Shown here piece after piece: positions 4,637 through 24,165 of a stretch of 64,000 bases of DNA. The translations under genes and the position numbers were made by a program. The stretch is from a bacterium (GTDB lineage Bacteria; Patescibacteriota; Microgenomatia; UBA1400; UBA12108), in NCBI GenBank assembly GCA_021788365.1, contig JAJYKS010000002.1:96521-160520 (forward strand). The letters are read 5' to 3'. The notes under the pieces are model-generated. The model was not told where the DNA came from. It saw only the letters and a list, made by a program, of their open reading frames with translations, and ran no database searches. Numbering within the stretch: the stretch's first letter is position 1; each line of letters opens with the position of its first letter.

Positions 4637-4677
4637 AAATCACTCCGATATATTTTATATGAGATAATTCTACTACT

Positions 4678-8875: not shown

Positions 8876-8893
8876 GGTTGTACTAGTAAAATT

Positions 8894-8976
8894 AACTACA
8901 ACTATAGTTACAGAATAGCAATTATAGTTGTAGTTGTCAAGCGTATTTTAAGGCTAAATTGTAACTATGGTTGTAG
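8894..8976. promoter_or_regulatory. Inverted and direct repeat cluster in the divergent control region between recombinase module 1 and the XRE gene
   Basis: AACTACAACTATA (8894-8906) and TATAGTTGTAGTT (8923-8935) form a 13-bp perfect inverted repeat. A third degenerate copy AACTATGGTTGTAG lies at 8963-8976. A nested palindrome AACTATAGTT is also present. Confidence 0.5.
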
Positions 8977-9068
8977 GCCAGATTTAGGCATAAATGATGT
9001 CCTATAAGTTGAAGAAATTGAGATTCTTTGATAAACTACCGTAAATTCACGAGTGATATACTACGATT

Positions 9069-9293
9069 ATGAATATGATTCCAGACGAAAAGAGCCAAAA
9101 AGCATTTGGTAAAAATCTTCGCTCAGTGAGGGAAGATAAAAGACTCTCTCAAGAAGAGGTTGCAACCCTGAGTAAGATTTCCACCACTCACTATGCCGGA
9201 ATTGAACGTGGAGAAGAAAACCCTACTTTTTCAGTGCTAGAAAACATCTGTAAAGCGCTCAAAATCAAGTCCTCCCAGGTTCTTCCTTTTTAA
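9069..9293 (+). CDS. XRE-family helix-turn-helix transcriptional regulator
   Basis: 74 aa with an HTH_3 pattern (LSQEEVATLSKISTTHYAGIERGEENPTFSVLENICKALKI). Confidence 0.7.
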   Translation: MNMIPDEKSQKAFGKNLRSVREDKRLSQEEVATLSKISTTHYAGIERGEENPTFSVLENICKALKIKSSQVLPF

Positions 9294-9359
9294 TCTTTTG
9301 CTCGATACGATAACTTCCTGTATACTCTCAACTAAATCCTGCCTCTATTAGGTCGGATT

Positions 9360-11951
9360 ATGTTAAAGATAACATCTCTACAAATAATTCTTTCTAAATA
9401 TACCTTTCGTTTGTTTGTTTTTGTTAATCCATATATCACACCTCTAAAAATAGCAGTTGTTGCGACGGTTGCGCTGTATGTGTGCTATCAGCTATTACGA
9501 CTTTATTTCACCATCAAACAACTAAAAGAGAAAAGTATTCTCTTTGAACTTCAGCCACTAAAAAATACTGAGCAATCCTCATATACCACTCAGCAATTAT
9601 TTGCCATTTTGCATGGACTTGCCAAACAGCGATCCTTTATTAATCGATTATTTGATATACAAAAGATCTATGCTTTTGAGATCGTTTCAACAAAGAATGG
9701 AGGAATAACCTATTACACAAGAATTGGCGAAGAAGAGGCTGACTTAGTGAAGAAAACCCTTTTAGCGTATTTGCCAGGAATCAGTGTAAAAGAATCGACT
9801 GATTACTTACAGTTCCTTACCAATCAACACAAACGAATATCAAGTTATAAACTTTCTAGGCACTTTGCATGCCCACTAAAACATCAAGAAGACCTGACGC
9901 TCCATGATCCGATAGCGTATCTAACTGGAAGTATGACTAAACTTACCGAGGATGAACTTATTGCTTTTCAAGTTGTGTTATCTCCGCTTCGCAAGTCTTC
10001 ACTTCCGGCTGTTTCGCGGATTTCTCACCTTATATATTCAGGTAAAGATTTAGTTTCAAACATCGGAAACGATACAGATACAAACCCAGTTATTATTGTT
10101 TTCAAGACTCTGTTTAGAGTAGTACTTCGCGTCCTTATGCTTCCATTTGGCTTATTGGTATTTATCACCACAGACGGACGAGAAGGTCCGGTATTAAGAC
10201 TTCCTACAGATATAGCACCGCTTAAAACCCCCAATCCATATCAGATTGAGCTTGAACAACTTGTAAAACATAAACTTGATCAACAGTTATTCACTTCATC
10301 TGTAAGACTAATGGTAGCGAGCAATAATTACAGCGAACTCAGAAAAAGAGAAAGAGGTTTTCAATCTGCTCTATCTGCGCTGAATAATTCAGACTATCAA
10401 GCTCTTATTCCATCATTTAGGATCACGTTAAAGCTATTTGATCGATTAATGGAGGTTCTTTATAACCATAGATTATTGATACCGACTAAATCATTGATTC
10501 TCTCAGCTACCGAAATTTCTGATCTGTATCACTTTCCCTATACCAGTACGACCAAAACGGAGGATTTACTCAAGCAACATAGTAAAGAACTACCAGCACC
10601 ACTGTCCTTGAAACAGAAGCAGGAATGCGATTTGTACTTTGGAATAAATACCTATGGTGGCACTGAAACAAAAATAGGATTAACGACTGATGAAAGACGA
10701 CGCCATGTCTATATTCTCGGAGCAACGGGCACGGGTAAATCCACCATGCTGTTATCAATGATTAAACAGGACATAGATCATGATAAAGGATTATGTGTCG
10801 TCGATCCTCACGGTGATTTAATCGAACAGATTGTATCCGTTATTCCTCATGGTCGTATTTCTGATGTTGTGTATTTTAACCCAGATGATATTAGCTATCC
10901 GATGGGCATTAACCTCCTTGAATTGACTCCGGGGTTAAATCCGGAAGATGCTATAAGAGAAAAAGAATTTATTGCTGAAAGTATCATCTCGGTTTTCCAT
11001 AAAATTTACACCGATAAATACTCCGGCCCAAGAATGGAATATATTTTGCGCAATACGATTCACACCGCCTTTACCGTGCCGGATGTAACCTTGTTTACCG
11101 TCTACAAACTTCTGATAAATACCTCATATAGAAAAGGGGTTGTGAGAGGACTTACCGATGAAAACCTCAAGGACTTCTGGAAATATGAATTTGCAAAAGC
11201 CGGTGATTACCAGAAAGTGAAGATGATTTCTCCGATTACTAACAAAATCGGGCGCTTCCTATTTTCTCCGACTGCAAAACGAATTCTTGAACAAGGCAAG
11301 TCGACAATTAACTTTGACACAATCATGAACGAAGGTAAGATTCTGCTTTGTAATCTATCGAAAGGAAAAGTTGGCGAGGATAATTCCGAAGTCTTCGGCG
11401 TACTTATCATGGCTAAGATCCAGTTGGCCGCTTTAAAAAGAGCCAGGATGAAGCAAGAAAATAGAAAAGATTTCTACCTATACGTTGATGAGTTCCAAAA
11501 CTTTGCCACTCCTGCGTTTGCCCAGATTCTCTCAGAAGCTCGTAAGTATCGATTAGGTGCAATTCTCGCTCACCAAACCACTTCACAACTTGAAGATATC
11601 TCGCTCGTAAATATTACCCTGGCCAATACTGGTACAGTCATTTGTTTCCGTACGGCTAATCCAGAGGATGAACGGATGATCTTGCCACAATTCAGGCCAT
11701 ATATTGAACAAGGTGAAATTGCCAGTCTTCCTTCATACCATTTTTACATGAGACTTGGAGCACTTAATCCTGAAGAGCCGTTTTCAGGCGTTACTGTTCC
11801 GGTGAAGATTGAATACAGTCAAAATAGGGTGAATGAGGTTATTGAATCGTCCAGAAAATTGTATGCCAAATCCTATACTCCCGAGAAACAATCATCAGTC
11901 AAAAAACCTACGAATCAAGCTATTCAAAAGATCTATGCTACAGTGCCATAA
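9360..11951 (+). CDS. Type IV secretion coupling protein (VirD4/TraG/TraD-like T4CP) with a large N-terminal membrane/extracytoplasmic domain
   Basis: 863 aa. Two TM segments are separated by a ~190-aa loop. Walker A is YILGATGTGKST followed by VDPHGD. The C-terminal TraG-D_C-like region reads YVDEFQNFATPAFAQILSEARKYRLGAILAHQTTSQL. A close paralog begins at 62169. Confidence 0.7.
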   Translation: MLKITSLQIILSKYTFRLFVFVNPYITPLKIAVVATVALYVCYQLLRLYFTIKQLKEKSILFELQPLKNTEQSSYTTQQLFAILHGLAKQRSFINRLFDIQKIYAFEIVSTKNGGITYYTRIGEEEADLVKKTLLAYLPGISVKESTDYLQFLTNQHKRISSYKLSRHFACPLKHQEDLTLHDPIAYLTGSMTKLTEDELIAFQVVLSPLRKSSLPAVSRISHLIYSGKDLVSNIGNDTDTNPVIIVFKTLFRVVLRVLMLPFGLLVFITTDGREGPVLRLPTDIAPLKTPNPYQIELEQLVKHKLDQQLFTSSVRLMVASNNYSELRKRERGFQSALSALNNSDYQALIPSFRITLKLFDRLMEVLYNHRLLIPTKSLILSATEISDLYHFPYTSTTKTEDLLKQHSKELPAPLSLKQKQECDLYFGINTYGGTETKIGLTTDERRRHVYILGATGTGKSTMLLSMIKQDIDHDKGLCVVDPHGDLIEQIVSVIPHGRISDVVYFNPDDISYPMGINLLELTPGLNPEDAIREKEFIAESIISVFHKIYTDKYSGPRMEYILRNTIHTAFTVPDVTLFTVYKLLINTSYRKGVVRGLTDENLKDFWKYEFAKAGDYQKVKMISPITNKIGRFLFSPTAKRILEQGKSTINFDTIMNEGKILLCNLSKGKVGEDNSEVFGVLIMAKIQLAALKRARMKQENRKDFYLYVDEFQNFATPAFAQILSEARKYRLGAILAHQTTSQLEDISLVNITLANTGTVICFRTANPEDERMILPQFRPYIEQGEIASLPSYHFYMRLGALNPEEPFSGVTVPVKIEYSQNRVNEVIESSRKLYAKSYTPEKQSSVKKPTNQAIQKIYATVP

Positions 11952-11954
11952 CTT

Positions 11955-12085
11955 TACCTACCGGTAGGAAAACACTATTTTGAGATTAGCCCGATTTATA
12001 GACCTTTTTACTTTTTATTTTTACCCCTTATTCCTTATATATAAGGGAGAGGAATGATACAATCATTCCAGATTCTGCCCACAGA
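11955..12085. promoter_or_regulatory. Candidate origin of transfer (oriT) or control region rich in palindromes
   Basis: Perfect palindromes CCTACCGGTAGG (11957-11968) and CCTTATATATAAGG (12033-12046) plus hairpin GGAATGAT-aca-ATCATTCC (12051-12069). The region lies between the T4CP gene and the replication-relaxation family gene. Confidence 0.35.
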
Positions 12086-12091
12086 CACACT

Positions 12092-12865
12092 ATGGACAAT
12101 CAAAAACTAACTACCACACAATTAAACATTCTTCACTATATCTATCGCTTTCGCTTCTTAACCAGTCTACAACTTCAAAAACTTCTTACTCACAAAAATA
12201 TCCGCCTGACTAACTACTACCTACAATTACTCACTGCAAAAAATTACATCGGCAAACACTATACTCGGTCACTCAGTCTAGCTAATATACCCGCGGTCTA
12301 TTTTCTTACCTCAGGAAGTATTCAAGTGTTAGAGAATACCGACGGAATCGAAAAACGAGCATTGAATCGGATCTATCGAGAAAAAATCCGCTCTCAACAA
12401 TTTATATCCCATACATCATTTTTAGCGGAGTACTATCTATTTCTGAGAAGTGAATCTGAAAAATCAAAGCACACACTCGATTTTTTCACGAAAACCGATC
12501 TTTTAGCACATCCCTACATAATCCATCCATTACCCGATGGTTATTTTGCGAGGGTCGATAACGTAGGCAACACTAAGCGATATTTTGTTGAAGTTATCGA
12601 GGATAGTTCACCTCGGTTTGCCTTACGTAAAAGAGTTCAGGCGTATTGTGATTATATTGATGAAGGAAAATTTGAGAGGGCCACAAGCCATCCGTTTCCG
12701 GTGATCCTCTTTATATGTCCGGGTATAGCGAGCCTTATATACCTAAAGAAACACATATCACGAATGTATGAAGAAATATCATTTGACCAAGTTGATATTT
12801 ATATCGCCACCCGTGAGGGTGCGTTTTCCGGAAAATGGGAAAAGGTGGAAGCAGAAGATGACTAA
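12092..12865 (+). CDS. Replication-relaxation (Replic_Relax) family protein; putative relaxase or mobilisation protein
   Basis: 257 aa with an N-terminal winged-helix-like segment (LTTTQLNILHYIYRFRFLTSLQLQKLL). Size and position next to the T4CP fit Replic_Relax proteins of Gram-positive ICEs. Family assignment is from memory. Confidence 0.4.
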   Translation: MDNQKLTTTQLNILHYIYRFRFLTSLQLQKLLTHKNIRLTNYYLQLLTAKNYIGKHYTRSLSLANIPAVYFLTSGSIQVLENTDGIEKRALNRIYREKIRSQQFISHTSFLAEYYLFLRSESEKSKHTLDFFTKTDLLAHPYIIHPLPDGYFARVDNVGNTKRYFVEVIEDSSPRFALRKRVQAYCDYIDEGKFERATSHPFPVILFICPGIASLIYLKKHISRMYEEISFDQVDIYIATREGAFSGKWEKVEAEDD

Positions 12866-13360
12866 TTACGGCATGAAAAAGTAGTTATATTCATCAAACG
12901 GAAAGTGTCCGGCCGGTTTGTTCAAGAGTAGATCAGCCAATTCCCAGGCGGTCATATTTTCTGAAATTCTGTACTCTGCGTTTGTGTCGATTGAGCCGTT
13001 ACCGATCTTGATTGCTTTGTCGCTTGGCGTGGAGTCTTTAGTGTGTTCTAGAGCCAACTTGAATGCTTTTTCATCCCGTATAAAACCATAATAAAAAAGA
13101 TTACCTATAAGAGCGTTAAGGGTAACGTCTTTGTTTATTCGTAAATCTACCGTTCCGTCCACTCCTGGCCTCGATCTGATTTTTTCAGCCTCAGCTACAG
13201 GCATATGGAGGCGTTCAATAAAATAATCTTCTACTTTCTTAGCTGATTTCCAGTCTTTCCCTGGAGCCTTAAAATTTTCTACGTTTGGTTTAGTAATTAA
13301 AGAATAACCACCTAATACTAACAATAAAAACACGACCAATATACTGATTTTCCTGATCAT
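12866..13360 (-). CDS. Membrane-anchored or secreted hypothetical protein
   Basis: 164 aa with an N-terminal hydrophobic segment (ISILVVFLLLVLGGYSLI). No catalytic motif recognised. Confidence 0.4.
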   Translation of the reverse strand: MIRKISILVVFLLLVLGGYSLITKPNVENFKAPGKDWKSAKKVEDYFIERLHMPVAEAEKIRSRPGVDGTVDLRINKDVTLNALIGNLFYYGFIRDEKAFKLALEHTKDSTPSDKAIKIGNGSIDTNAEYRISENMTAWELADLLLNKPAGHFPFDEYNYFFMP

Positions 13361-13643
13361 GCCCTTATTATAGACCTTCTAAGCTAGACGCTTTCTTTTC
13401 GGCCGAGAAACCTATTCAGCTCCCTACGTCCTTCTTCTGTTTGACGAAACTCATAAAACAACTTAGCGCCTTTATCTGTTAAAAATGACACATATACAGG
13501 TAAATCATTGAGTGACATTTTTCTAAATTCCTGCAACCGTCATATCGACGGTGTAACTTTTAAAAACTGGTAGTATTCTGATCATATTTTTATTCCTTTC
13601 TAATCCCATCCGCTGGATTGCTAGGCCAGCGAATGGGTAACTT

Positions 13644-13958
13644 TTATAATTTGGCACTTGGTACAACCTCACTGATCCGCTTTTCATCAAAATACAAATC
13701 ACGCTCTATCCCTAGACCGAATTGTCCGCGGTAGCTTTCGAGCTCTGCCAGTGAAAATGAACCCCATTCGTCATTCCAATCCCCAAAGATTGAAACGTAT
13801 CCGAAAAATTCCTTTGACACTGGATCATATTCGGTGGCGTACCATGTACCCGCTCCGGCTGGGTTGAAAAACTTCGCCACTACAACGGGGTCTTTGCTGT
13901 CCTCTTGTCTTCCAATCTTCGCGAACCTCATTAGTAGCTCGTTGGTTAATAGCTTCAT
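13644..13958 (-). CDS. DUF2958-family protein (plasmid/ICE associated)
   Basis: 104 aa with the motifs VVAKFFNPAGAGTWYATEYDP and FGDWNDEWGSFSLAELES characteristic of DUF2958. Confidence 0.55.
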   Translation of the reverse strand: MKLLTNELLMRFAKIGRQEDSKDPVVVAKFFNPAGAGTWYATEYDPVSKEFFGYVSIFGDWNDEWGSFSLAELESYRGQFGLGIERDLYFDEKRISEVVPSAKL

Positions 13959-14005
13959 ATGTTGTCACCTCCTTTTTTTTGGGTTTTCCCTGATAATTTA
14001 TTTTT

Positions 14006-14152
14006 GGGAAGCATGCCCATGCTTCCCATACCAGGGGAACCCTCAAGCGAGGTGAAATTTTGCAAGGGCAATCCCGCCATAGGCGGGAGCAGTTTATTGA
14101 AGGCGAAGCCGGAAACCCTTGCAAAATGAGGGGCAAGACCCCTAGAGACTCG
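14006..14152. repeat. Copy A of a ~140-nt hairpin-rich repeated element
   Basis: Perfect hairpin GGAAGCATG-CC-CATGCTTCC. Long-range stem TTTTGCAAGGG...CCCTTGCAAAA. Internal hairpins CCCGCC-ATA-GGCGGG, GGC-GAA-GCC and AGGGG-CAAGA-CCCCT. Related copies lie at 24031-24165 and 28172-28222. Confidence 0.6.
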
Positions 14153-14233
14153 ATAAATATCTGAAAAACATATTTAATTGCTTGACTCACAGAACAGTAT
14201 GGGAGTAATATATGAATATAGATTCATATTACT

Positions 14234-14590
14234 ATGTCAGACACAAATCCAGTGCGTTTACAGAAACTTTTAAAGCTTATTTCCAATGAGAATAAGTTCA
14301 ACATTATCCAACTTCTTTCCAAAGGAGAGGTTTGTGTGTGTGATATCGGCGAGAAACTAGGCATCGAGCAGTCATTAGTTTCTCACCATTTAAATTCGCT
14401 TCGAAAAGCCGGACTTATTAACGATCGCAAACTTGGAACTTGGATACACTGCTCATTAAACAGAAATGCGTTCGCAGACTTAATGTCCCTGTTTTATATG
14501 CACTTAAGTCAGGATGCGATATCGGAAAAAATGTGTTGCGTACACGATGAATGTAAATGTTTACGTAAAGGAGCAAAAAATGAAAAATAA
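14234..14590 (+). CDS. arsR: ArsR-family arsenic-responsive repressor
   Basis: 118 aa with a winged HTH and an As(III)-binding ELCVCDL-like motif (GEVCVCDIGE). It is the first gene of the ars operon. Confidence 0.8.
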   Translation: MSDTNPVRLQKLLKLISNENKFNIIQLLSKGEVCVCDIGEKLGIEQSLVSHHLNSLRKAGLINDRKLGTWIHCSLNRNAFADLMSLFYMHLSQDAISEKMCCVHDECKCLRKGAKNEK

Positions 14591-14894
14591 AATCATTATT
14601 TACGATCCACCTATGTGTTGTTCTTCAGGGGTTTGTGGACCTAATCCAAATAGAACCTTGCTTGATTTTCAAGACACCTTCAAACATTTAGTCCAAAATG
14701 GGGAATTGATTGAACGCTACATCATTACCCAAAGTCCAGAGAAATTTAAGGAAAATCCGAAAATTATTAAGCTAATCCAAGACCAAAAGTTAAAAGTTCT
14801 TCCTATTACTACAGTCAATGGAGACGTAGTAAAAACCGGATCGTATCCAACTAAAGAAGAACTTGAAAGTTATTTAGTAATTAGAAAAGCATAA
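14580..14894 (+). CDS. arsD: Arsenic metallochaperone/repressor ArsD
   Basis: N-terminus MKNKIIIYDPPMCCSSGVCGP matches the ArsD Cys12-Cys13-Cys18 motif. An RBS (aaggagc) precedes the ATG at 14580. The ORF-track start at 14514 is probably too far upstream. Confidence 0.8.
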   Translation: MKNKIIIYDPPMCCSSGVCGPNPNRTLLDFQDTFKHLVQNGELIERYIITQSPEKFKENPKIIKLIQDQKLKVLPITTVNGDVVKTGSYPTKEELESYLVIRKA

Positions 14895-14897
14895 AGC

Positions 14898-16748
14898 ATG
14901 AATACAAAATTCTTATTTTTCTCAGGTAAAGGCGGGGTGGGTAAAACAACCATGTCTTGTGCCACTGCCATTCATTATGCCAATGAAGGTAAAAAGACAT
15001 TAATTATTACCACTGACCCGGCTTCGAATCTTGCGGATGTATTTGAACAAACAATTGGCCATAAAATTACTCCCATCAAAACAATCTGGAACCTTTCAGC
15101 TATGGAGCTCGATCCGGATAAGGCTACAGCAGAGTATAAAGAACGGACGTTATCCCCTTTGCGAGGACTTATCCCAGAAGAAAGTTTTGCCGTTCTTGAA
15201 GAACAATTAAACTCACCGTGTACCGCAGAAATGGCCTCTTTTGACCGCTTTACTGATTTTGTGCAGGATGGTCAGTTTGATATTGTCATTTTTGATACCG
15301 CTCCGACCGGTCATACATTGCGTTTACTTGAGTTGCCGGTGGAATGGAGTGGGGTGATTGAAAAAGCAGCTAATGATAGTAGCGGTGGACAAACCTGTAT
15401 TGGTCCTGCGGCAGCGTTGGCAGCCTCCAAAGCCAAGTTTGATCGAGCTATCACTGTCATGCGAGATCCCAGAATTACAACTTTTCTATTCGTTCTGCGC
15501 CCCGAATCAACACCAATCTATGAAGCTGAGCGCTCTATTTCCGAGCTGAATAAGTTAGATATTCACTCGTTGGAGATCATCGTCAACGGAGTCTATCCAG
15601 CAGAAGCTTGTGACAATCCCTTCATGACTGCGCGGTTTATGAAACAACAGGAGTTTTTAAAGGCAATTAACCAGAAGTTTTCGGTTCCCGCTCGAATCGT
15701 TGAATTAGGCTCCGAAGAAATCAAAGGAGTTGAACGTCTAGCTTCAATTGCCGTCAAACTCTTTGATAATCCAACAGAACTGATAGATTATCAATACAAA
15801 AATCTGGAGGTGAAAGAATCGTCTGCAACTCATGGTTATGTTTTACCCAACGAAAACATAAAGAAATTGCTCACCCCCTTAAATGAGAAGAAACGGGTGA
15901 TCTTTTTTGCCGGTAAAGGCGGTGTGGGTAAGACCTCGATTTCCGCCGCTACCGCTCTCTGGGTGGCCCAAGCCGGATACAAGACATTATTGTTAACCAC
16001 TGATCCAGCCTCTCACTTAAAACAGATTTTTGATCAAGAAGTCACTGACAAACCTACTCTGGTGAACGGAGAGAAAAATTTATGGTTTACACATATTGAC
16101 GCTAAAAAAGCGGTAGAAGAATACAAGGAGAAAATTCTCTCTGAGGCTCGAACTAAATATGATAAAGATCGCGTCACTGCTATTGAAGAGGAGCTAAACT
16201 CACCCTGTACCGAAGAAATGGCCACCTTTGAAAAATTTATTGAGTTTGTCGCCCGAAAAGACTTTGAGGTAATTGTATTTGACACGGCTCCCACTGGTCA
16301 TACGTTACGATTGCTCGAATTACCCGTGGACTGGAACAGGCAATTGGAAATTAAAACTTTTACCACAACAGGTGAAACCGATGTCGATAAGATAACTAAG
16401 TCTAAATTTAAGGAAGTGATTGATCTGCTTCAGGATCCAGATCAGACTACATTTAGTTTTGTTATGTATCCGGAAGCAACACCAATTGAAGAAGCATCTA
16501 GGGCGATTAAGGAACTCTTAACCATCAGCGTCCCTACTAGTCTGATTGCGGCTAACTTAATTCTTTCCGAAACTATTGTTACCAATGAGTATTTACGGCA
16601 ACGAAAGGCCATGCAGGAGAAATATCTAGCTGTAATGGCTAAACGCTTTACAGCCCCCATCGTTACTCTCCCACTCCTAAAAGAAGATTTAATGGGCAAA
16701 GATCGATTGCGTGAAGCTGGTTATCTATTGTATGGAAAATTAAACTAA
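14898..16748 (+). CDS. arsA: Arsenite-transporting ATPase ArsA (duplicated halves)
   Basis: 616 aa with two P-loops (GKGGVGKTT twice) and two TDPASNL/TDPASHL motifs. A metalloid-binding Cys is present. Confidence 0.9.
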   Translation: MNTKFLFFSGKGGVGKTTMSCATAIHYANEGKKTLIITTDPASNLADVFEQTIGHKITPIKTIWNLSAMELDPDKATAEYKERTLSPLRGLIPEESFAVLEEQLNSPCTAEMASFDRFTDFVQDGQFDIVIFDTAPTGHTLRLLELPVEWSGVIEKAANDSSGGQTCIGPAAALAASKAKFDRAITVMRDPRITTFLFVLRPESTPIYEAERSISELNKLDIHSLEIIVNGVYPAEACDNPFMTARFMKQQEFLKAINQKFSVPARIVELGSEEIKGVERLASIAVKLFDNPTELIDYQYKNLEVKESSATHGYVLPNENIKKLLTPLNEKKRVIFFAGKGGVGKTSISAATALWVAQAGYKTLLLTTDPASHLKQIFDQEVTDKPTLVNGEKNLWFTHIDAKKAVEEYKEKILSEARTKYDKDRVTAIEEELNSPCTEEMATFEKFIEFVARKDFEVIVFDTAPTGHTLRLLELPVDWNRQLEIKTFTTTGETDVDKITKSKFKEVIDLLQDPDQTTFSFVMYPEATPIEEASRAIKELLTISVPTSLIAANLILSETIVTNEYLRQRKAMQEKYLAVMAKRFTAPIVTLPLLKEDLMGKDRLREAGYLLYGKLN

Positions 16749-16753: not shown

Positions 16754-17116
16754 ATGAACGACCAACTTTTACAACTTGTCCGTGGTTTTTCTCAAGAATT
16801 GGTAAATGAAATACCTGAATTTCAGGAACTCATTCAAGCGAAACAGGCACTCGATAGAGATCCGGTGTCACAACGATTATGGCAAGAAAAGGAAGAGCAA
16901 CGACAAACTGTAGACTTACTAAAAAAACAAGGTTTACCAGTATCAACCGAACAGGAGCAGAGATTGTTTCAAAAACTCCAAGAGATGCGGGAGAACCCTA
17001 TCACGATGCGATATCTTAAGGCTATCAATTTTGCTAATAAAATATCAGGCAAAATCGGCGCCGAATTATTTGATTTTATCGGGGTTGACTTTGCCCCAAG
17101 AAAGGGGTGTGCATAA
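16754..17116 (+). CDS. YlbF/YmcA (UPF0342)-like protein ending in a Cys motif
   Basis: 120 aa helical protein with the YlbF-like pattern (EFQELIQAKQAL...PVSQRLWQEKEE...NPITMRYLKA). The C-terminus reads PRKGCA. Confidence 0.4.
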   Translation: MNDQLLQLVRGFSQELVNEIPEFQELIQAKQALDRDPVSQRLWQEKEEQRQTVDLLKKQGLPVSTEQEQRLFQKLQEMRENPITMRYLKAINFANKISGKIGAELFDFIGVDFAPRKGCA

Positions 17117-17484
17117 TGTCAAAACAAATCTATTCTAAAACAAAAGACTACATTCAATCCTTACTGGATACTGATGAAGTGAAAGCCTATACCAAAGCGG
17201 TTGATGATTTTCAAAACGATATCGAGGCTAAAAAACTACTGAAAGATTTGCAGGAATCACAACAAACGCTTGCTGTATTTCGACAGGGTGGATTTACAGG
17301 TGTAGAAGAACAGGAGCGTAAAGTGAAGCTTTTGCGGAATAAAGTTTCTAAAGATAAAAAAGTTCAAATCTTAATAAGATCACAACAAGAGTTACAAGAT
17401 TTAGTGGGTGCATTGGCGGGAGAAATCAGTCAAGCAATTAATTTCCCATTTGCCCAACCACAACGAGGAGGGTGCTGCGGCTAA
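17107..17484 (+). CDS. Second YlbF/YmcA (UPF0342)-like paralog with a Cys-rich C-terminus
   Basis: 125 aa with the same family pattern (EVKAYTKAVDDFQND...AKKLLKDLQESQQ). The C-terminus reads QRGGCCG. It overlaps the previous gene by 10 nt. Confidence 0.4.
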   Translation: MCIMSKQIYSKTKDYIQSLLDTDEVKAYTKAVDDFQNDIEAKKLLKDLQESQQTLAVFRQGGFTGVEEQERKVKLLRNKVSKDKKVQILIRSQQELQDLVGALAGEISQAINFPFAQPQRGGCCG

Positions 17485-17487
17485 ACT

Positions 17488-18228
17488 ATGAAAAACATTA
17501 AGCAAATAGTCAAAGAAAATTATTGCCAAATCGCCAAGCAAAATAGTTCGTGCTGCGGTGGTGGTTCATGCTGTAATGGTAGTTTGCCAGATTTAAGCAA
17601 AATTATCGGGTATACCGACGAACAGATAACTGAAGTACCGGATGGCGCCAATCTCGGTTTGGGTTGTGGTAACCCACTCGCTTTAGCAACATTGAAACCA
17701 GGAGAAACGGTATTGGATTTGGGCTCAGGAGCTGGCTTTGACGTATTTCTAGCATCTCGGAAAGTAGGATCCAGCGGTAAGGTTATTGGTGTGGATATGA
17801 CTGAAGAAATGATTAAAAAAGCCAGGAAGAATGCTATTACCGGTAAATTTACAAACGTTGAGTTTAAACTGGGAGATATTGAAAATTTACCCGTAGAAAG
17901 TTCAACCATTGATGCAATTATTTCCAATTGTGTCATTAATTTAGCACCGAATAAGAATAAGGTTTTTGCTGAAGCTTACCGAGTACTAAAGCCCGGTGGC
18001 AGATTGATGATCTCCGATGTAGTGTTATCAAAGGAACTACCAGAGAATCTAAAAGGTGACGAAGCACTGCTAACTGGTTGCGTTAGTGGAGCCATTCTAA
18101 AAGAAGACTATTTGCAAATGATAAAGGAAGCTGGATTTAAAGAAGTCAAAATTACCAAGGAAGTGCCGATGTTCATGGAAGCGTATGCACTAAGCATTTC
18201 ATTTACTGCAAAGAAAGTTAATAAATAA
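17488..18228 (+). CDS. arsM: Arsenite S-adenosylmethionine methyltransferase ArsM
   Basis: 246 aa. N-terminal Cys cluster ([10 protein letters not shown]). SAM-binding motif [13 protein letters not shown] and the conserved C-terminal VSGA region. Confidence 0.8.
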
Positions 18229-18424
18229 TGAGTAACAAATTATGATAAATATATTTTATTGTCAAAAATGCAAAAGGAAAATGATGATTTCAATAAATAT
18301 GCTGAAGAGTTACAAAATAGAGGTGGCGGATGTTATGTCGATAGAGTGTGCCACGGCTAAACTATGAAAAACACAAATACTTTTATTTGTTGACATTTAC
18401 AATTGTTTTTTATAGCATTAACAT

Positions 18425-18811
18425 ATGTCTTCATCAAAAAAAGTTGATTTAGTGAGTATGGCAGATTCGGCCTGTCAAACGGAAATTCCTCGATATAGAA
18501 AGAATGGAACACCTTTCCTGTCAAATTCTATGCTCATCAATTTTTCAACTTTTGCCCATGCACTTAGCGATAGTATCCGACTTCAAATGCTCTTTTTGTT
18601 GACACAATATCCTGACCTATGTACCTGTGAATTCGAGGAGCTTTTATCTATAAGTCAATCGAAAGTGTCTTATCACCTCAAGATACTCACTGATGCTCAA
18701 CTTGTTTCACGAAAAACGCAAGGAACATGGAGTCACTTTAGTCTTATTCGGAAAGATATTTTTAATGAGCTTCAACCCTTTACTAAATTTAAGAAAAAAA
18801 ACCAATCATAA
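18425..18811 (+). CDS. ArsR/SmtB-family metal-responsive regulator
   Basis: 128 aa with an HTH and a LCTCE metal-site motif. It immediately precedes a P1B ATPase. A candidate promoter TTGACA(18390-18395)-N16-TATAGC lies upstream. Confidence 0.7.
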   Translation: MSSSKKVDLVSMADSACQTEIPRYRKNGTPFLSNSMLINFSTFAHALSDSIRLQMLFLLTQYPDLCTCEFEELLSISQSKVSYHLKILTDAQLVSRKTQGTWSHFSLIRKDIFNELQPFTKFKKKNQS

Positions 18812-21072
18812 TGAAAAATAATCATTCAAAAAAATCTATTAAGACAGTTGAAATACCTATTCAAGGCATGACCTGCGTTGACTGTTCGTTTGATATTGAG
18901 GCTGCTATAAAAAAGGTACCAGGCGTGCAAACTGTTGAGGTACTCGTAAACTCCGAAAAGGCACACGTCCAATTCGATCCAACGAAAGCATCGATTGAGG
19001 ATATTCACTCTGCGATAGAAAATGCTGGCTATTGCACCCCGCTTTCTCTTCAACCAACAGTGCAACCAAAAAATCCATCGGATACTCAAATACCGTTGGG
19101 AAATTTTACTAATCGCATTTTAATACTATTTGGAATTGTGTTTGGAGTGGTTTTACTTGTTGTCGTGATGGGTGAAGTGCTTGGGATATTTGATCGTTAC
19201 ACAGAGCAAATACCATGGTTTGTCTGGCTTATTTTAGTGATTATCAGCGGGTATTCGATTTTTCGAGGAGTTATTCAAGCAACACTAAGAAAACAGATAA
19301 CCTCGCATACCCTCATGACGGTGGGGCTTATTGCAGCTGCAGTTGTTGGAGAATGGACTACAGCACTACTTATCGTTTTTTTCATGCGAGTTGCCGAGTA
19401 TGTTGAGAAATTTACTACTGAACGTGCCAGGCAAGCTCTGAAAAACCTTACCCGACTTGCTCCACTCACAGCTCGAATAGAAAAAAATGGAGAGGAACAA
19501 GAAGTCATGATTGGGGCAGTACAGAAAGACGATATTGTTATCGTCCGACCAGGAGAACGTATTCCCGTTGACGGTGTTGTTATCGATGGCCAAGCAACAG
19601 TAAATCAAGCAGCGATTACAGGTGAATCAATGCCGGCAGAAGTCGGTGTCGGAGCGAAAGTATATGCTGCAACAATAGCACAATTCGGGACGCTTCGCAT
19701 TCGCACCACTCTTATCGGTGAAGATACAACTTTTGGCAAAGTGATTAAATTGGTTGAGGAGGCAGAAACCCATCGAGCAGACGTACAACGAGTTGCGGAT
19801 AAGTTTTCCGCATACTATTTACCGGTTGTTGTCGTTGTAGCAACACTCACATTTGTATTTAGTCACAATCCTTTGGCGACCGCTGCCGTTTTAGTCGTTG
19901 CCTGTTCCTGTTCGTTTGCCATGGCTACCCCCATAGCCGTTTTAGCTTCAGTGGGAGCGGCTGCTAAGAGAGGCCTGCTTGTTAAAGGAGGAAAATACCT
20001 TGAAGAGCTCTCGCGTATTGATGTTTTATTGATTGATAAGACTGGGACTTTGACTTTAGGTCGTCCTACAATTTTAGACGTAGTTTCTTTGGGTAAAATG
20101 ACAGAGAGTGAAATTGTTAAACTGGCTGCTTCTGCAGAAAGGTATTCAGAGCATCCCTTAGCTGAAGCGGTACGAACTCTCGCACACAATCGAAATATTA
20201 CTTTGTCTCAACCAAGTGAGTTTGTGGCCATACCAGGAAAAGGAATTCGGACAAAAATCTCAGATAAATCAATTGCCGTGGGAAGCAAACGTCTCTTTAC
20301 AGACAGTATGTTAAACGATAAAAAAATCCATGAAATAATTTCCAAACTTGAAATACAGGGAAAGACATGTTTGATAGTTTCGCAAGATGATACTATTGTC
20401 GGAATATTAGCAGCTTCAGATACAACGAGAACTGAAGTGCCCAAAGCGATAGATGACCTTCGTGCACTGGGCATCAAAAAAATAGAGCTGTTGACTGGTG
20501 ACAATGAACGAGTCGCCGCTTCACTTGCAAATACTTTAAAAGTTGATTACCAGGCTGGTCTTCTCCCTGAAGACAAAATACGAATCGTAAAAGAATATCA
20601 GAAAAAAGGTCACACTGTTGCAATGATTGGTGATGGGGTAAACGATGCTCCCGCTCTTGCCCAAGCCAATGTCGGAATTGCCATGGGAGCAGCCGGCACT
20701 GATGTCGCAATTGAGGCAGCACATATTGCATTGATGCGCGATGATTGGGCGCTTATACCAGAGGTCATCCATATATCTCGCCGTACCATGTCTGTTGTTA
20801 AATTTAATATTGGATTCACTGTTGTGTACAACTTTATTGGTTTAGCGCTCGCATCAACTGGCATTTTACCTCCTGTGTTTGCAGCGGCTGCCCAAACACT
20901 GCCCGATTTAATTATTTTAGGAAATTCATCTCGTTTATTAAAAAGGAGTGTATTTACAAAAAATATTCCTATTAATAAAGTAAAATTTACTAACAGAAAT
21001 GAAAAAGGAGCTGAATGCGATCCAAATACCTGCGCATGCGGCTCAGTATCAATTGATCAGGTACACTCTTAA
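18811..21072 (+). CDS. Heavy-metal P1B-type ATPase with a non-canonical CSC transmembrane motif
   Basis: 753 aa. N-terminal HMA domain (GMTCVDCSFDIEAA). DKTGTLT phosphorylation site and GDGVNDAP motif. The TM6 motif reads VVACSCSFAMATP where CPC is expected. A Cys-rich C-terminal tail (CDPNTCACGS) is present. Confidence 0.85.
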   Translation: MKNNHSKKSIKTVEIPIQGMTCVDCSFDIEAAIKKVPGVQTVEVLVNSEKAHVQFDPTKASIEDIHSAIENAGYCTPLSLQPTVQPKNPSDTQIPLGNFTNRILILFGIVFGVVLLVVVMGEVLGIFDRYTEQIPWFVWLILVIISGYSIFRGVIQATLRKQITSHTLMTVGLIAAAVVGEWTTALLIVFFMRVAEYVEKFTTERARQALKNLTRLAPLTARIEKNGEEQEVMIGAVQKDDIVIVRPGERIPVDGVVIDGQATVNQAAITGESMPAEVGVGAKVYAATIAQFGTLRIRTTLIGEDTTFGKVIKLVEEAETHRADVQRVADKFSAYYLPVVVVVATLTFVFSHNPLATAAVLVVACSCSFAMATPIAVLASVGAAAKRGLLVKGGKYLEELSRIDVLLIDKTGTLTLGRPTILDVVSLGKMTESEIVKLAASAERYSEHPLAEAVRTLAHNRNITLSQPSEFVAIPGKGIRTKISDKSIAVGSKRLFTDSMLNDKKIHEIISKLEIQGKTCLIVSQDDTIVGILAASDTTRTEVPKAIDDLRALGIKKIELLTGDNERVAASLANTLKVDYQAGLLPEDKIRIVKEYQKKGHTVAMIGDGVNDAPALAQANVGIAMGAAGTDVAIEAAHIALMRDDWALIPEVIHISRRTMSVVKFNIGFTVVYNFIGLALASTGILPPVFAAAAQTLPDLIILGNSSRLLKRSVFTKNIPINKVKFTNRNEKGAECDPNTCACGSVSIDQVHS

Positions 21073-21077
21073 ATTAT

Positions 21078-21725
21078 ATGAGCAAAAAGAAACATAATCT
21101 TAGACAATCATCTTATGATCCGTCCATGGAGACAGTCATGCCTATGGAGAATCCGGTATCGAGTAAGAATAATCTGCAAGTCTTATTTCTTGCGCTTGGG
21201 ATCGGTATCGTTTTGATATTAATATTGGCAAATCGTTTACTAGACCTGAAAAATAATACAAGCAATGGATCAGTAAAGGCTGTAAGTACGATTCAAGGAG
21301 TAGGAGGTATAACATGGAGTGTTCCAACGATTGACGGAGGCACATATGATTTTGCAGAGCATAAGGGAAAGCCGACGGTTTTATTCCTAAGTTCTTCATG
21401 GTGTAAAGAATGTCGAGGTGAAGTGGCAAAATTAGCCCGTGTATACAACACATACAAAAATAAGGGGCTGGAGATTGTTGCTCTTGATATCTATCCTCAG
21501 GAGGGTCCAGAGCCGTGGAGACAGTTTAAGGATGATGGCGCGGGTGGCGAGACTGTAAATTATGTGTGGGCTATGGATACAAATAATCAGATTGCTCGTC
21601 TATTAAACGTTCAATATTTGGATACAAAAATATTTATAAACAGTCAAGGAAAAGAGGTAGCACGTACCCTTGGTATTCGCCCTTACGAAGAGATTGAAGC
21701 ACATGTTAAGGAGACGCTTCAATGA
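21078..21725 (+). CDS. Membrane-anchored thioredoxin-like (TlpA/ResA-like) thiol-disulfide oxidoreductase
   Basis: 215 aa with an N-terminal TM segment and a WCKEC CxxC motif in a thioredoxin-fold context. Confidence 0.65.
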   Translation: MSKKKHNLRQSSYDPSMETVMPMENPVSSKNNLQVLFLALGIGIVLILILANRLLDLKNNTSNGSVKAVSTIQGVGGITWSVPTIDGGTYDFAEHKGKPTVLFLSSSWCKECRGEVAKLARVYNTYKNKGLEIVALDIYPQEGPEPWRQFKDDGAGGETVNYVWAMDTNNQIARLLNVQYLDTKIFINSQGKEVARTLGIRPYEEIEAHVKETLQ

Positions 21726-22417
21726 ACAATCTCCCTCTAGCGTATGCATTCGGCGCCGGATTGCTGGCGACCTTAAATCCATGTTGTGTGGCAATGCTTC
21801 CATCCTTCCTCGCGTTTTATATCGGAGCCAATAACGAAGGCTACGAGCACATTCCACTACATAGTCGCCTAAAGAATGCAGTTATGACAGGAATCCTTGT
21901 CACATTAGGGTTCTTAACCATATATCTTGGTGGTGGCATCTTGGTAAGTCTAGGCTTACAAATGTTTATCAACTGGGTACCTCAACTTACGATCCTCATA
22001 GGGTCCATTTTAATGGTAATGGGCGGGACTATGCTCCTAGGGCACTCTCTTAAGGTTCATCTATTTCATCCACAATGGAGCGTAAAAAAAACGGGATTAT
22101 TGCCAATGTTTTTATATGGGGTAAGTTATGCAATTGCATCGTTATCGTGCACATTGCCAATGTTCTTGATTATCGTAGGCAGTACAGCCTCTGCTCCAGG
22201 ACCACTATCGACACTGCTTATGTTTCTGAGTTATGGGTTGGGAATCGCAGTTGTTCTTATTGGTATCACCTGCGCAACTATGCTCTTTCAGACTGCAGTA
22301 AATCGATGGCTGCACAGAATTCTTCCATATGTTCAGATAGTTAGCGGGTTGCTTCTGATTGGGGTGGGAGCGTATTTAATCTATTATCAATTACACTTTG
22401 CCTTTAGGTTGTTTTAA
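21722..22417 (+). CDS. CcdA/DsbD-family transmembrane electron transporter
   Basis: 231 aa multi-TM protein with an NPCCVAMLPSFLAFY signature. It is translationally coupled to the thioredoxin-like gene. Confidence 0.7.
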   Translation: MNNLPLAYAFGAGLLATLNPCCVAMLPSFLAFYIGANNEGYEHIPLHSRLKNAVMTGILVTLGFLTIYLGGGILVSLGLQMFINWVPQLTILIGSILMVMGGTMLLGHSLKVHLFHPQWSVKKTGLLPMFLYGVSYAIASLSCTLPMFLIIVGSTASAPGPLSTLLMFLSYGLGIAVVLIGITCATMLFQTAVNRWLHRILPYVQIVSGLLLIGVGAYLIYYQLHFAFRLF

Positions 22418-23139: not shown

Positions 23140-23259
23140 TTTCTTCTCCTTTTTTTGTCAAATGTCGTAGTTCGTAATACATAATCTTTATTATAGTAAA
23201 TTATAACTAAAGATTCTTGCTTGTTCGTAACATAGACGAACACTGAATAAAGTTCCGGA

Positions 23260-23837
23260 AGGTGCCAATTTGGGTTTAGGGTTTGGCAGGCACTTGCTTT
23301 GGCTGCACTGCTATCAGAAGAAACAGTATTAGATCTAGAGTCAGACGCTGGTTTAAGTCTTTTTAGCTGCCTGCAAGGTAGGAAGTACAGGCAAAGTTAT
23401 CAGTGTTGGTAGTACTGAAGAAATGATTACAAATGCAAGGTAAATGCTGCCTCCGGTAAATTTACAAATGTTGAGTTTTGTCTTGGAGATACTGAAAATT
23501 TACCTACAGTAAGCGTAACCATCGATGCGATTATTTCTAATTATGTGATAAATTTAGCACCGAATAAGGATAAGGTCTTTGCTGACACTTACCGAGTATT
23601 AAAACCGGAGTCAGATTGATGATTTCCGACGTAGTGCTATCAAAAGTATTACCAGAAAATCTCAAAGAGGATAGTACATTGCGCACAGGATGTGTCAGCG
23701 GTGCTATCTTAAAAAATAACTATCTCAAAATACTAAATGAGGCCGGATTCAAAGACATCAGCATAACAAAGAAGGTACCGATGTTCATAGAGGAATATGC
23801 GTTAAGTATTTCATTTACAGCAATAAAACCAAAGTAA
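23260..23837 (+). pseudogene. Degraded second copy of arsM
   Basis: Nucleotide-level similarity to arsM 17640-18228, but with several stops and frameshifts. Only the last 73 codons (23616..23837) remain open and match the ArsM C-terminus (MISDVVLSK...ALSISFTA). Confidence 0.6.
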
Positions 23838-24030
23838 AGGTTAGTTGCACTATGAATAAATTTTTCTATGAATAATGCAAATTAGGATTTGAAGTCTAAG
23901 AAAATAATCTTGAATATTAAGATCAGCAATGTCTTCTCACCTGCCTAATTTGCAAATCTCGTTAGAGCTAATTTGTAAAAAATTTCATAATTTCACACCT
24001 CCTTTTGACTTCTTCCCGAAATTAATTGTT

Positions 24031-24165
24031 AGGAAGTATGACCATACTTCCCATACCTGGGAATCTTTCTAGCGGGGTGAAATTTTGCAATGGCAAACGA
24101 AGTGCAGTTTATTGAAGCGAAGCGGAAACCCTTGCAAAAAGAGGGGCAAGGCCCTTAAAAGAATC
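24031..24165. repeat. Copy B of the ~140-nt hairpin-rich element
   Basis: Aligns with copy A. Hairpin 1 is GGAAGTATG-AC-CATACTTCC, with a compensatory C:G to T:A change relative to copy A. The TTTTGCAATGG...CCCTTGCAAAA and AGGGG-CAAGG-CCCTT stems are conserved. The internal hairpin is deleted. Confidence 0.6.

Follow-up and report, generated by a model that had tools for sequence, protein, structure and literature searches.

Two adjacent genes for small YlbF/YmcA-like proteins with cysteine-ended tails, here called Y1 and Y2, lie within the ars operon of the window (the whole 64-kb stretch of DNA analysed). They belong to a widespread two-protein module found in bacteria and salt-loving archaea, and comparison of loci from both domains shows that linkage of the pair to ArsD and ArsA is near-obligate. 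Since the module travels with a distinct, four-cysteine ArsA in bacteria and archaea alike, the partner of the pair is probably ArsA rather than the methyltransferase ArsM. Thiol-based metalloid handling is the most economical reading of these data. A catalogued link of such proteins to ars genes already exists through the haloarchaeal proteins HcsL and HcsS, and their function is undescribed in the literature that we found.

The Y1 and Y2 genes and their operon

The genes arsR-arsD-arsA-Y1-Y2-arsM form one tightly packed operon on the plus strand, with neighbouring genes from arsR to arsM either overlapping or separated by 3–5 nt. A single promoter-like site was found in the operon, 5′ of arsR (14182..14211, plus strand; TTGACT-18-TAATAT), called from its consensus match alone. 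The sole terminator-like site of the operon lies within arsR (14314–14330), and no such site was detected on the plus strand from arsD through arsM. The ArsR/SmtB metalloregulator ArsR (14234..14590, plus strand; 118 aa) scores 57.4 bits with Pfam HTH_5 and 84.6 bits with NCBIfam NF033788. It is followed by the metallochaperone ArsD (14580..14894, plus strand; 104 aa; PF06953, 108.4 bits; NF033727, 107.7 bits against a cutoff of 90), which from its sequence is a short form with the As(III) site MCCSSGVC. Next come the 616-aa ArsA (14898..16748, plus strand; PF02374, 510 bits), the Y genes and, starting 3 nt past Y2, the 246-aa arsenite methyltransferase ArsM (17488..18228, plus strand; NF008823, 349.6 bits against a cutoff of 263). 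The operon sits on an integrative element. It contains no reductase gene, and no Acr3, ArsB or ArsP was detected in the 64-kb window by tblastn or among ten of its larger ORFs by Pfam.

Y1 occupies 16754..17116 on the plus strand and encodes 120 aa ending in ...GVDFAPRKGCA, with the single tail cysteine at Cys119 (codon 17108–17110). Y2 (17116..17484, plus strand) ends in ...INFPFAQPQRGGCCG, with a vicinal pair at Cys120-121 (codons 17473–17478). An HMM search, which the initial annotation had proposed, places both proteins above the 23.9-bit cutoff of Pfam PF06133 Com_YlbF (39.1 bits for Y1 and 52.9 bits for Y2), and the two are homologous to each other (hhalign, 96%). The annotation's reading of two YlbF/YmcA-like genes between arsA and arsM with tails ...PRKGCA and ...QRGGCCG thus holds. 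It had also given lengths of 120 and 125 aa. The first stands, and Y2 is rather 122 aa: of its two candidate starts, ATG at 17116 (122 aa, in a TAATG overlap with the Y1 stop) and GTG at 17107 (125 aa), the ATG agrees with the public gene call and with all homologues (122–124 aa, beginning MSK or MSN). Either start implies translational coupling of Y2 to Y1, as had been suggested. Neither protein matches the ArsD models (PF06953 and NF033727), and with the NCBIfam YlbF/YmcA equivalog models (PRK13676; cutoffs 130–200) the best scores are 28.1 bits for Y2 and 20.7 bits for Y1.

We found 35 homologues of Y1 and nine of Y2, at 47–95% identity. The tails (...GC-x in Y1, ...GCCG in Y2) are kept in all close homologues except two; the Y1 tail cysteine is shared by at least 90% of 36 sequences, and the Y2 GCCG is invariant (10/10 sequences). 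Homologues with conserved tails indicate that Y1 and Y2 are real genes and not chance ORFs. A survey of orthologous ars operons, also proposed in the initial annotation, finds the cysteine tails retained. In addition, scanning metagenome contigs with a degenerate DNA pattern of the tail motif alone yielded 29 loci, which are mostly from a few sediment studies and not independent. Nearly all of them combine a CC-tail gene with a C-tail gene, and in 25 a second paralogue ending in C or CC lies next to the first. No pair examined has fewer than three tail cysteines. A profile search built on 132 sequences recovered at least 15 proteins, including fused two-domain forms that are located in arsD/split-arsA operons and whose tail cysteines are invariant. 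Y1 and Y2 are not colinear with domains 1 and 2 of these fusions: by hhalign, domain 1 corresponds to Y2 and domain 2 to Y1. Further small proteins of such operons likewise have Cys-rich C-terminal tails.

Linkage to ArsD and a four-cysteine ArsA

The initial annotation had proposed that the pair hands arsenite to ArsM. The comparative context argues against this. All eight close loci carry arsR-arsD-arsA, and arsD-arsA is found wherever the contig extends far enough; ArsD accompanies the pair in all operons examined. Among the motif-selected loci, ArsA is present in 15 of the 15 with sufficient upstream DNA, and ArsB is present in one more locus. Two loci (L047 and L034) have the pair adjoining a non-ars ATPase. 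The methyltransferase gene, by comparison, is found in one of the 29 motif-selected loci and beside the pair in some close relatives only. It follows the pair in L003, L006 and L007, and follows arsR2 on Halobacterium pNRC100, and is not beside the pair in L005, L001, L018, the Halorubrum locus L016 or any fused-form locus.

The ArsA of the window scores 646.5 bits with NF041417 ArsA_halo (cutoff 800) and 495.8 bits with TIGR04291 (cutoff 650), placing it below both cutoffs and nearer to the first model. The same preference is seen in eight of eight pair-linked ArsAs, all of which are under the TIGR04291 cutoff. The best haloarchaeal match to the ArsA of the window, from Haloferax, shares 43.5% identity with it, and canonical ArsA proteins share 33–36%. 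Alignment to 9nbl and 1f48 shows that its three metalloid cysteines, C108, C167 and C437, are conserved. A fourth, clade-specific cysteine is found at C238 (codon 15609–15611). Among the 23 pair-linked ArsAs examined, a cysteine of this type is present in 20/20 encoded by fused genes and, for split ArsAs, in each of the two halves (3/3). The comparison set of canonical ArsAs is five proteins only; the position is E, Q, S or A in those of E. coli, B. mycoides, S. saprophyticus and Comamonas, and the PDB alignment shows that the cysteine is also missing from L. ferriphilum ArsA.

Relationship to HcsL/HcsS and to RicA/RicF

The initial annotation had described the family as never before linked to arsenic, which is too strong. 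NCBIfam already contains models for two halo-CC-star proteins, HcsL (NF041416) and HcsS (NF041415), alongside ArsA_halo (NF041417), and in RefSeq hcsL-hcsS lies directly 3′ of arsA on 26 haloarchaeal plasmids, in the order arsD-arsA-hcsL-hcsS. The gene order on Halobacterium pNRC100 is arsD-arsA-hcsL-hcsS-arsR2-arsM, and on a Halorubrum megaplasmid arsA is followed by a Cys-terminated pair in the same layout as in the window. A literature search returned no paper on HcsL or HcsS and none linking YlbF proteins with arsenic.

Y2 resembles HcsL. It matches NF041416 over its full length at 52.3 bits, below the cutoff of 140 (Y1, 20.5 bits), and hhalign aligns it to Halorubrum HcsL at 98.3% (E 1.6e-14), with both the QGGF motif and the GGCC end in register. 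Like hcsL-hcsS, Y1 and Y2 are two genes, directly after arsD-arsA, whose products all end in cysteines, and the two systems have the ArsA clade and its extra cysteine in common. They also differ. HcsL is haloarchaeal and ends CC*, whereas Y2 is bacterial, with about 40% GC, and ends CCG*, as do nine close homologues (many more distant Y2 relatives end CC*). Gene order is inverted relative to hcsL-hcsS, the single-Cys subunit Y1 coming first, and while HcsS has 62–74 aa and ends CC*, Y1 is a 120-aa full-length YlbF paralogue ending C-A*. Y1 was rejected as an HcsS orthologue: it has no match to NF041415, hhalign against Halorubrum HcsS gives 0.4%, and the likeness is limited to a GVD(F/Y) motif. 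A tblastn search of PLSDB with two bacterial-looking proteins (P0077 and P0116) returned haloarchaeal hcsL only. ArsA occurs on 2141 plasmids and HcsL-like genes were found only on haloarchaeal ones; the module is apparently missing from plasmids of cultured bacteria.

The fold points to another known pair. In an AF2 model of Y2 (mean pLDDT 84.9), tail residues 108–122 are unstructured and the best PDB match is 6prk_A (RicA/RicF; TM 0.76/0.80, rmsd 2.4 Å), followed by YmcA (2pih); the eleven best PDB chains are all of Ric, YmcA or YheA type (6prk_A, 2pih, 6prh, 6prk_B, 2iaz and 2oeq). A similar fold is predicted for Y1 from its hhalign match to Y2. In B. subtilis, RicA pairs with RicF in a heterodimer whose two C-termini exit on opposite faces, and [4Fe-4S] cluster 2 of the Ric complex is bound by RicF C134 and C146, RicA C141 and RicT C167 (PMC6751060). 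Y1 and Y2 share with RicA and RicF the Pfam family, the fold, the two paralogous subunits and a 1+2 arrangement of tail cysteines, which in the Ric system acts with a fourth cysteine from a third protein, RicT. In contrast, sequence identity is only about 17–18%, and the Ric tails have 20–25 residues with spaced cysteines that hold a [4Fe-4S] cluster with RicT, whereas those of Y1 and Y2 have 10–15 residues and Y2 carries a vicinal CC at the very end. The genetic context is ars genes rather than RNase Y, competence and sporulation, and there are relatives in archaea.

Possible roles of the pair

We infer heterodimer formation, As(III) binding by the tails and contact with ArsA. In the arrangement that we propose, Y1 and Y2 would form a helical-bundle heterodimer of RicA/RicF type that serves a distinct ArsD-ArsA system as a recruited accessory. 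In both subunits a five-helix bundle leads into a short cap with the conserved motif G-x-(D/N)-F and then into a flexible tether, 5–8 residues long, that ends in one cysteine in Y1 and a vicinal pair in Y2; the two tails together offer three thiolates. Three is the number needed for As(III) or Sb(III), as in the S3 sites of ArsD, ArsR and ArsA, where three-coordinate, Cys-bound As(III) is established (PMC12415280). The tails may receive the metalloid from the accompanying ArsA or donate it to that protein, with ArsA C238 as a candidate docking or exchange thiol. The pair would thus act as a metalloid acceptor, buffer or adaptor in a hand-off chain from ArsD to ArsA, for which ArsM, Acr3, ArsB and ArsP may be interchangeable downstream sinks. 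We give about even chances to a RicAF-like heterodimer whose flexible tails exchange As(III)/Sb(III) with ArsA by means of at least three thiolates. The shortness of the Y1 and Y2 tails relative to those of RicA and RicF, together with the opposite-face exit of the RicAF C-termini, counts against it, as does the family precedent, which is Fe-S ligation and not metalloid binding. We rejected a membrane role for the pair, and likewise a lipid attached to the CC end, since both proteins are soluble bundles of helices and lack any hydrophobic segment. The ArsE/F/G nomenclature is unrelated and concerns roxarsone detoxification.

ArsD provides the nearest functional comparison. It too is a small cytosolic protein encoded beside arsA, and its vicinal cysteine pair and third cysteine bind As(III) for delivery to ArsA (PMC12415280); its fold is an unrelated, thioredoxin-like one with the cysteine site near the N-terminus. 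ArsD is found beside the Y pair in every operon examined, so the pair is no replacement for it; with the chaperone role taken by ArsD, the presence of a second chaperone would have to be explained. A bolder proposal is that the Cys-tailed pair and the four-cysteine ArsA are a self-contained, ATP-driven machine for arsenite capture and hand-off that needs no ArsB or Acr3. In such a machine ArsA Cys238 and the three tail thiolates would jointly bind As(III) until its release to any available sink, for instance ArsM or a so far unrecognised exporter. We regard this proposal as doubtful.

The Ric precedent offers a different role for the same cysteines. The three tail cysteines and a partner cysteine such as ArsA C238 could ligate a [4Fe-4S] cluster, as in RicA-RicF-RicT, making ArsA redox- or As(III)-sensitive or serving Fe-S protein protection or repair during arsenic stress. 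The 3+1 count fits the clade-specific fourth cysteine of ArsA, some pairs have sulfur-mobilisation genes next to them (in L017, TusA and a cysteine desulfurase; in L005, Aminotran_5; in L013, SufBD/ABC), and the canonical arsA of B. mycoides is followed by a gene for an "iron-sulfur cluster biosynthesis family protein". However, the Y2 pair is vicinal and at the extreme C-terminus while the RicF ligands are spaced, and the neighbouring RicT residues C166 and C167 bind two different clusters (PMC6751060), which suggests that one cluster is not shared by adjacent cysteines. The Pfam gene lists of loci L001–L019 contain no PSP1/RicT gene, and the other genes of these ArsR-controlled operons are solely metalloid-handling. 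We consider an Fe-S role unlikely. A redox relay, with the terminal dithiol cycling to a disulfide and keeping thiols of ArsA, ArsD, ArsC or ArsM in the reduced state during arsenic or oxidative stress, would be modelled on the GCUG/SCCS tail of thioredoxin reductase. The GCUG* end of that enzyme has the same form as the GCCG* end of Y2, and in both MerA and thioredoxin reductase a flexible vicinal-Cys (or Cys-Sec) tail links a buried site to a partner by shuttling a soft metal ion or reducing equivalents. Those tails, however, belong to flavoenzymes, whereas Y1 and Y2 are small helical bundles with no cofactor or catalytic domain. The pair often has thioredoxin-fold genes (Thioredoxin_3, DUF1462-like), pyridine-nucleotide disulfide reductases or thioredoxin-type ArsC as neighbours, but its tightest linkage is to ArsA and not to ArsC or reductases, the partner subunit often has a single cysteine, and the operon of the window has no reductase gene of its own. 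This makes a relay decidedly improbable.

A dedicated chaperone delivering As(III) to the N-terminal cysteine cluster of ArsM would explain the closeness of arsM to Y2 in the window and the few other loci in which arsM follows the pair. The CCGGGSCC cluster noted in the initial annotation is indeed present near the ArsM N-terminus (residues 22–29; codons 17551–17574). It lies within the NF008823 match (residues 2–232), though, and is thus typical of ArsM and part of the ordinary family model. With arsM so rarely beside the pair elsewhere, we consider this role very improbable. The reading of Y1 and Y2 as ordinary YlbF/YmcA regulators (RNase Y specificity, cell fate) that are carried on a mobile element and have no arsenic role draws on the Pfam match and the integrative element. 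It is already disfavoured, and barely credible, given equivalog scores far under cutoff (28 against 130), arsD-arsA synteny kept across distant bacteria and archaea, translational coupling within an ArsR-controlled operon and a fourth ArsA cysteine that co-varies with the pair.

ArsA is the textbook arsenic-efflux ATPase, and many arsA operons are without ArsB or Acr3. Biochemical evidence for a direct ArsA-ArsB interaction is still lacking according to a recent structural paper (PMC12415280). Halobacterium NRC-1 owes arsenite and antimonite resistance to arsADRC and can dispense with its chromosomal arsB; a transporter of unknown identity was postulated there (PMC3600143). The ArsA clade with the fourth cysteine almost always precedes a Cys-tailed YlbF-like pair or fusion, an association that spans haloarchaea, sediment bacteria and the lineage of the window. 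The pair is thus a concrete and genetically tractable candidate for the missing component of ArsB-less ArsA systems, testable in Halobacterium, where ArsA gives resistance without ArsB. If the pair and ArsA do form a capture machine, this would explain both the two-decade-old NRC-1 puzzle of ArsB-independent, ArsA-dependent arsenite resistance and the persistence of permease-less arsRDA operons on mobile elements of small-genome bacteria. More broadly, the RicA/RicF family, known so far solely for Firmicute factors of RNA processing and cell fate whose tails ligate Fe-S clusters, would be extended to metalloid resistance, and annotation of such genes as "competence regulators" is misleading.

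Operon structure and surroundings

An ORF listing of the raw sequence places six genes on the + strand, overlapping or 3–5 nt apart: arsR (14234–14590), arsD (14580–14894), arsA (14898–16748), the YlbF/YmcA-like genes Y1 (16754–17116) and Y2 (17116–17484), and arsM (17488–18228). Profile matches in Pfam and NCBIfam firmly identify ArsR, ArsD, ArsA and ArsM. A promoter-like site (consensus match) lies immediately 5′ of arsR, and no terminator-like site was found on the + strand from arsD through arsM, the sole one in the operon being inside arsR. No Acr3, ArsB or ArsP was detected by tblastn over the 64-kb window or by Pfam in ten of its larger ORFs.

Y1 is a 120-aa protein ending in GVDFAPRKGCA. 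The initial annotation correctly recognized Y2 as its tandem partner but, by using an upstream GTG, made it 125 aa long. The ATG at 17116, which overlaps the Y1 stop codon (TAATG), is the best start because the resulting 122-aa protein, ending in INFPFAQPQRGGCCG, agrees with all homologues and with the public gene call. The HMM search proposed there bears out the YlbF/YmcA assignment, both proteins passing the Com_YlbF cutoff of 23.9 bits (Y1, 39.1; Y2, 52.9). The AlphaFold model of Y2 is a five-helix bundle (mean pLDDT 84.9) with a tail disordered from residue 108; its closest PDB match is the B. subtilis RicA-RicF complex 6prk (TM 0.76/0.80, rmsd 2.4 Å), followed by YmcA 2pih, then 2iaz and 2oeq. 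The ORFs, profile scores and fold match thus confirm the original observation of the two genes.

The operon belongs to a 10-kb metal cassette that also holds arsR2 with a P1B-ATPase, genes resembling thioredoxin and DsbD, and an arsM pseudogene. The second metal module (18425–22417) encodes an ArsR-family regulator (18425–18811), an HMA-domain P1B-type ATPase (18811–21072), an AhpC/TSA-thioredoxin-like protein (21078–21725) and, with no Pfam match, a membrane protein of 231 aa whose N-terminus bears a CcdA/DsbD-like CC motif (21722–22417). In the pseudogene (23243–23837, +), ArsM residues 47–113, 73–169 and 167–243 lie in different frames (tblastn, 48–73% identity), and only the last 73 codons persist as an ORF (23616–23837); this degraded second copy accounts for DNA repeats D2 and D3 (17738–17993 and 23352–23606). 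A 30-nt, 90% identical copy of the Y2-stop/arsM-start junction (17468–17497) lies at 18344–18373, 116 nt past intact arsM; it may be what is left of a former Y2-arsM junction, parted from the pseudogene when the arsR2-ATPase block inserted. The cassette is flanked by direct-repeat copies about 150 nt long (13995–14144 and 24020–24157, 82–91% identical; third, partial copy at 28180–28214), which suggests that it arrived by insertion or can be mobilised when the repeats recombine.

The region from 6937 to 13958 and onward looks like an integrative element, with a serine recombinase (6937–8679, −) abutted by tRNA-Leu (6972–7056), an HTH gene, a TraG-like/DUF87 ATPase (9360–11951), Replic_Relax (12092–12865) and a DUF2958 gene (13644–13958, assigned by synteny with the related locus L003). 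L003 and L006 have the same mobile-element genes 5′ of their ars operons. GC content falls from 53% at 1–4 kb (uvrB and a 959-aa ORF) to about 40% over the remaining window. A T4SS pilin gene lies at 53075–54352. A 300-nt direct repeat with 71% identity (10512–10811, within the TraG-like gene, and 63339–63638) is a hint that another, related element lies close to the window end. A fluoride riboswitch (RF01734) was found at 27941–28002 (−), scoring 37.4 bits against a gathering score of 34.

Distribution of the cysteine-tailed proteins

By hhalign (96%), Y2 is a paralogue of Y1, and their tail cysteines align. Both tails are kept in orthologous ars operons; their loss there would have refuted the initial annotation. 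All ten Y2-family proteins (47–100% identity) end in GCCG, with G119, C120, C121 and G122 invariant, as is an FRQGGF motif. The penultimate cysteine of Y1 is present in at least 90% of 36 sequences (50–95% identity); one sequence ends in RRGV instead and another has a diverged C-terminus.

The family had been presented as never linked to arsenic. This does not hold for annotation: tblastn against PLSDB with a haloarchaeal-looking representative found 26 haloarchaeal plasmids on which NCBI annotates hcsL and hcsS beside arsA. Our literature search found no paper on halo-CC-star and none tying YlbF-family proteins to arsenic. Halobacterium NRC-1 pNRC100 has the order arsC<-arsR<- ->arsD-arsA-hcsL-hcsS-arsR2-arsM, the same architecture as the window operon. 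Y2 matches the HcsL model NF041416 over its full length at 52.3 bits (cutoff 140) and Halorubrum HcsL with 98.3% hhalign probability, terminal GGCC included. HcsL ends in SLGGGCC and the 62-aa HcsS in GSDCC; Y1 was rejected as an HcsS relative, similarity between the two not reaching significance outside a GVD(F/Y) motif.

A HMMER search with the Y2 profile against 1.84 billion representatives gave 366 matches at E ≤ 0.001. Among the best 146 full-length matches, a vicinal CC occurs within the final six residues of 93, a single terminal Cys in 36, and the tail lacks Cys in 16. The HcsL model was matched at E ≤ 0.001 by all 130 Cys-tailed representatives and by both window proteins. Some weaker Y2-profile matches resemble ordinary Firmicute RicF with spaced Cys-rich tails, so a Cys tail alone is not ars-specific.

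arsR-arsD-arsA lies upstream in all eight close loci (metagenomes and MAGs). Six carry both Y1 and Y2 and two (L001, L002) only Y2. Two of these loci have an inserted arsC of the LMW-phosphatase type, and Acr3, ArsB and ArsP are encoded in none of these operons. L001 and L018 lack the Y1-type gene and encode, besides Y2, a further small protein whose end is Cys-rich: a 68-aa protein ending in GGCC (L001, 5885–6091) and a Zn_ribbon_8 (PF09723) protein ending in CGPVCGPGTC (L018, 2820–3059). Further Zn_ribbon_8 proteins end in GGGCCGPGGCGSV (L011, 6721–6945) and GPGCCGSN (L047, 1616–1837). An 81–108-aa DUF1462-like or ArsD-like protein often lies between the Cys-tailed small protein and the YlbF pair.

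For an unbiased sample of gene context, metagenome contigs were scanned for DNA encoding FDFA-x6-GGCC-stop, yielding 29 loci that span at least five tail subtypes and are not fully independent, because most come from a few sediment studies. In 25, a second YlbF-like paralogue (ending in AASC or SGCC) directly adjoins the CC-tail gene. The usual order is arsD-arsA-[Zn_ribbon_8 with Cys tail]-[DUF1462-like]-Ycc-Yc; L026 has a clear ArsB upstream, and the only non-ars neighbours are of the L047/L034 type. ArsA is encoded at all 15 motif loci with enough upstream DNA. In L017 (1–3342), an ArsD-like C-terminus precedes a CC-tail and C-tail pair without an intervening ArsA, and 3′ of the pair lie genes for Thioredoxin_3, TusA, cysteine desulfurase and a flavoprotein, a sulfur-trafficking context.

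Natural fusions of two YlbF domains (266 aa) sit in arsR-(acr3 or arsP)-arsD-arsA1-arsA2-...-fusion operons, with arsC and Trx genes 3′ in two of three fusion families. By hhalign, Y2 corresponds to domain 1 and Y1 to domain 2. Of the invariant cysteines, C121 and C129 sit where domain 1 ends and C264 at the C-terminus, and each half of the confident model (pLDDT 87.8) matches 6prk chains. Every pair or fusion examined has at least three tail cysteines. One fusion-encoding operon (L011) has a Rieske protein and an arsenite-oxidase-like molybdopterin oxidoreductase between its split arsA halves (3137–5713).

A fourth cysteine in the associated ArsA

The window ArsA scores 646.5 bits against ArsA_halo (NF041417) versus 495.8 against the canonical TIGR04291, and is 43.5% identical to Haloferax ArsA versus 33–36% to the canonical ArsAs sampled. 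ArsA_halo likewise outscored TIGR04291 for 8/8 pair-linked ArsAs, all under the TIGR04291 cutoff. The canonical sample was drawn from 2141 ArsA-bearing plasmids, among which no non-haloarchaeal plasmid had a match to an HcsL-like gene.

When 20 pair-linked and four canonical sequences were aligned, the metalloid cysteines (window C108, C167 and C437; E. coli C113, C172 and C422) proved conserved in both groups, one pair-linked sequence having no aligned Cys at C167. An extra cysteine at window ArsA position 238 (codon 15609–15611), part of the motif NG-x-x-P-x-x-x-C-x-x-PF(F/M), is shared by all 20 pair-linked ArsAs; canonical ArsAs have E, Q, S or A there, and L. ferriphilum ArsA has Ala. The split ArsAs accompanying fused pairs have it in both halves (3/3), and all ArsAs examined that have a Cys-tailed YlbF pair or HcsL/S downstream carry it (L001–L045, L015, L016). 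Pair-linked ArsA is a distinct clade marked by a fourth cysteine.

On a Bacillus mycoides plasmid (L050) with a canonical arsR-acr3-arsC-arsD-arsA operon, a 93-aa 'iron-sulfur cluster biosynthesis family protein' is encoded directly 3′ of arsA (4265–4546), a further small protein, possibly Cys-bearing, in the YlbF-pair position.

A possible role for Y1 and Y2

In the RicA-RicF heterodimer, the C-terminal tails give 1+2 cysteines to a shared ligand and RicT gives the fourth (PMC6751060). As(III) is bound by three thiolates in ArsA, ArsD and ArsR, and ArsA participates in nucleotide-dependent hand-offs (PMC12415280). The best-supported reading is that Y1/Y2 are a RicAF-like heterodimer and an As(III)/Sb(III) partner of the four-Cys ArsA. 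We infer that the two proteins dimerise, bind metalloid and contact ArsA: their short flexible tails would form a site of at least three thiolates for As(III)/Sb(III), and the pair would act with ArsA as acceptor, buffer or adaptor, with ArsM, Acr3, ArsB and ArsP as interchangeable sinks.

A Fe-S cluster shared between Y1/Y2 and ArsA has precedent within the family, fits the 3+1 cysteine arithmetic and has genes for sulfur mobilisation close by in L017, L005 and L013; however, the extreme C-terminal position of the vicinal CC would favour a soft metalloid over a single cluster, and we consider this explanation unlikely. Somewhat less probable again is a redox relay by the tails, although their terminal vicinal dithiol resembles the TrxR tail and neighbours include reductase and thioredoxin genes. 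The As(III) hand-off to ArsM put forward in the initial annotation is contradicted by gene context, arsM lying downstream in only three of the eight close loci (L003, L006 and L007; L005 is without it) and at one of the 29 motif loci (L037), and we now regard an ArsM-specific chaperone as quite improbable. Synteny and NCBIfam scores speak against an unrelated Ric-type regulator, to which we give hardly any weight.

The haloarchaeal hcsL/hcsS pair was already named in NCBI annotation, with no function assigned there. What appear to be new are the bacterial HcsL relatives below curated cutoffs, the pairing of a CC-tail with a C-tail together with the fusions, a near-obligate linkage with ArsD-ArsA instead of ArsM, and the fourth ArsA cysteine co-varying with the pair. 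In Halobacterium NRC-1, As(III)/Sb(III) resistance is conferred by arsADRC, chromosomal arsB has no role and a novel transporter has been proposed (reviewed in PMC3600143). This strain is a direct test bed, its ArsB-independent ArsA function having been unexplained since 2004.
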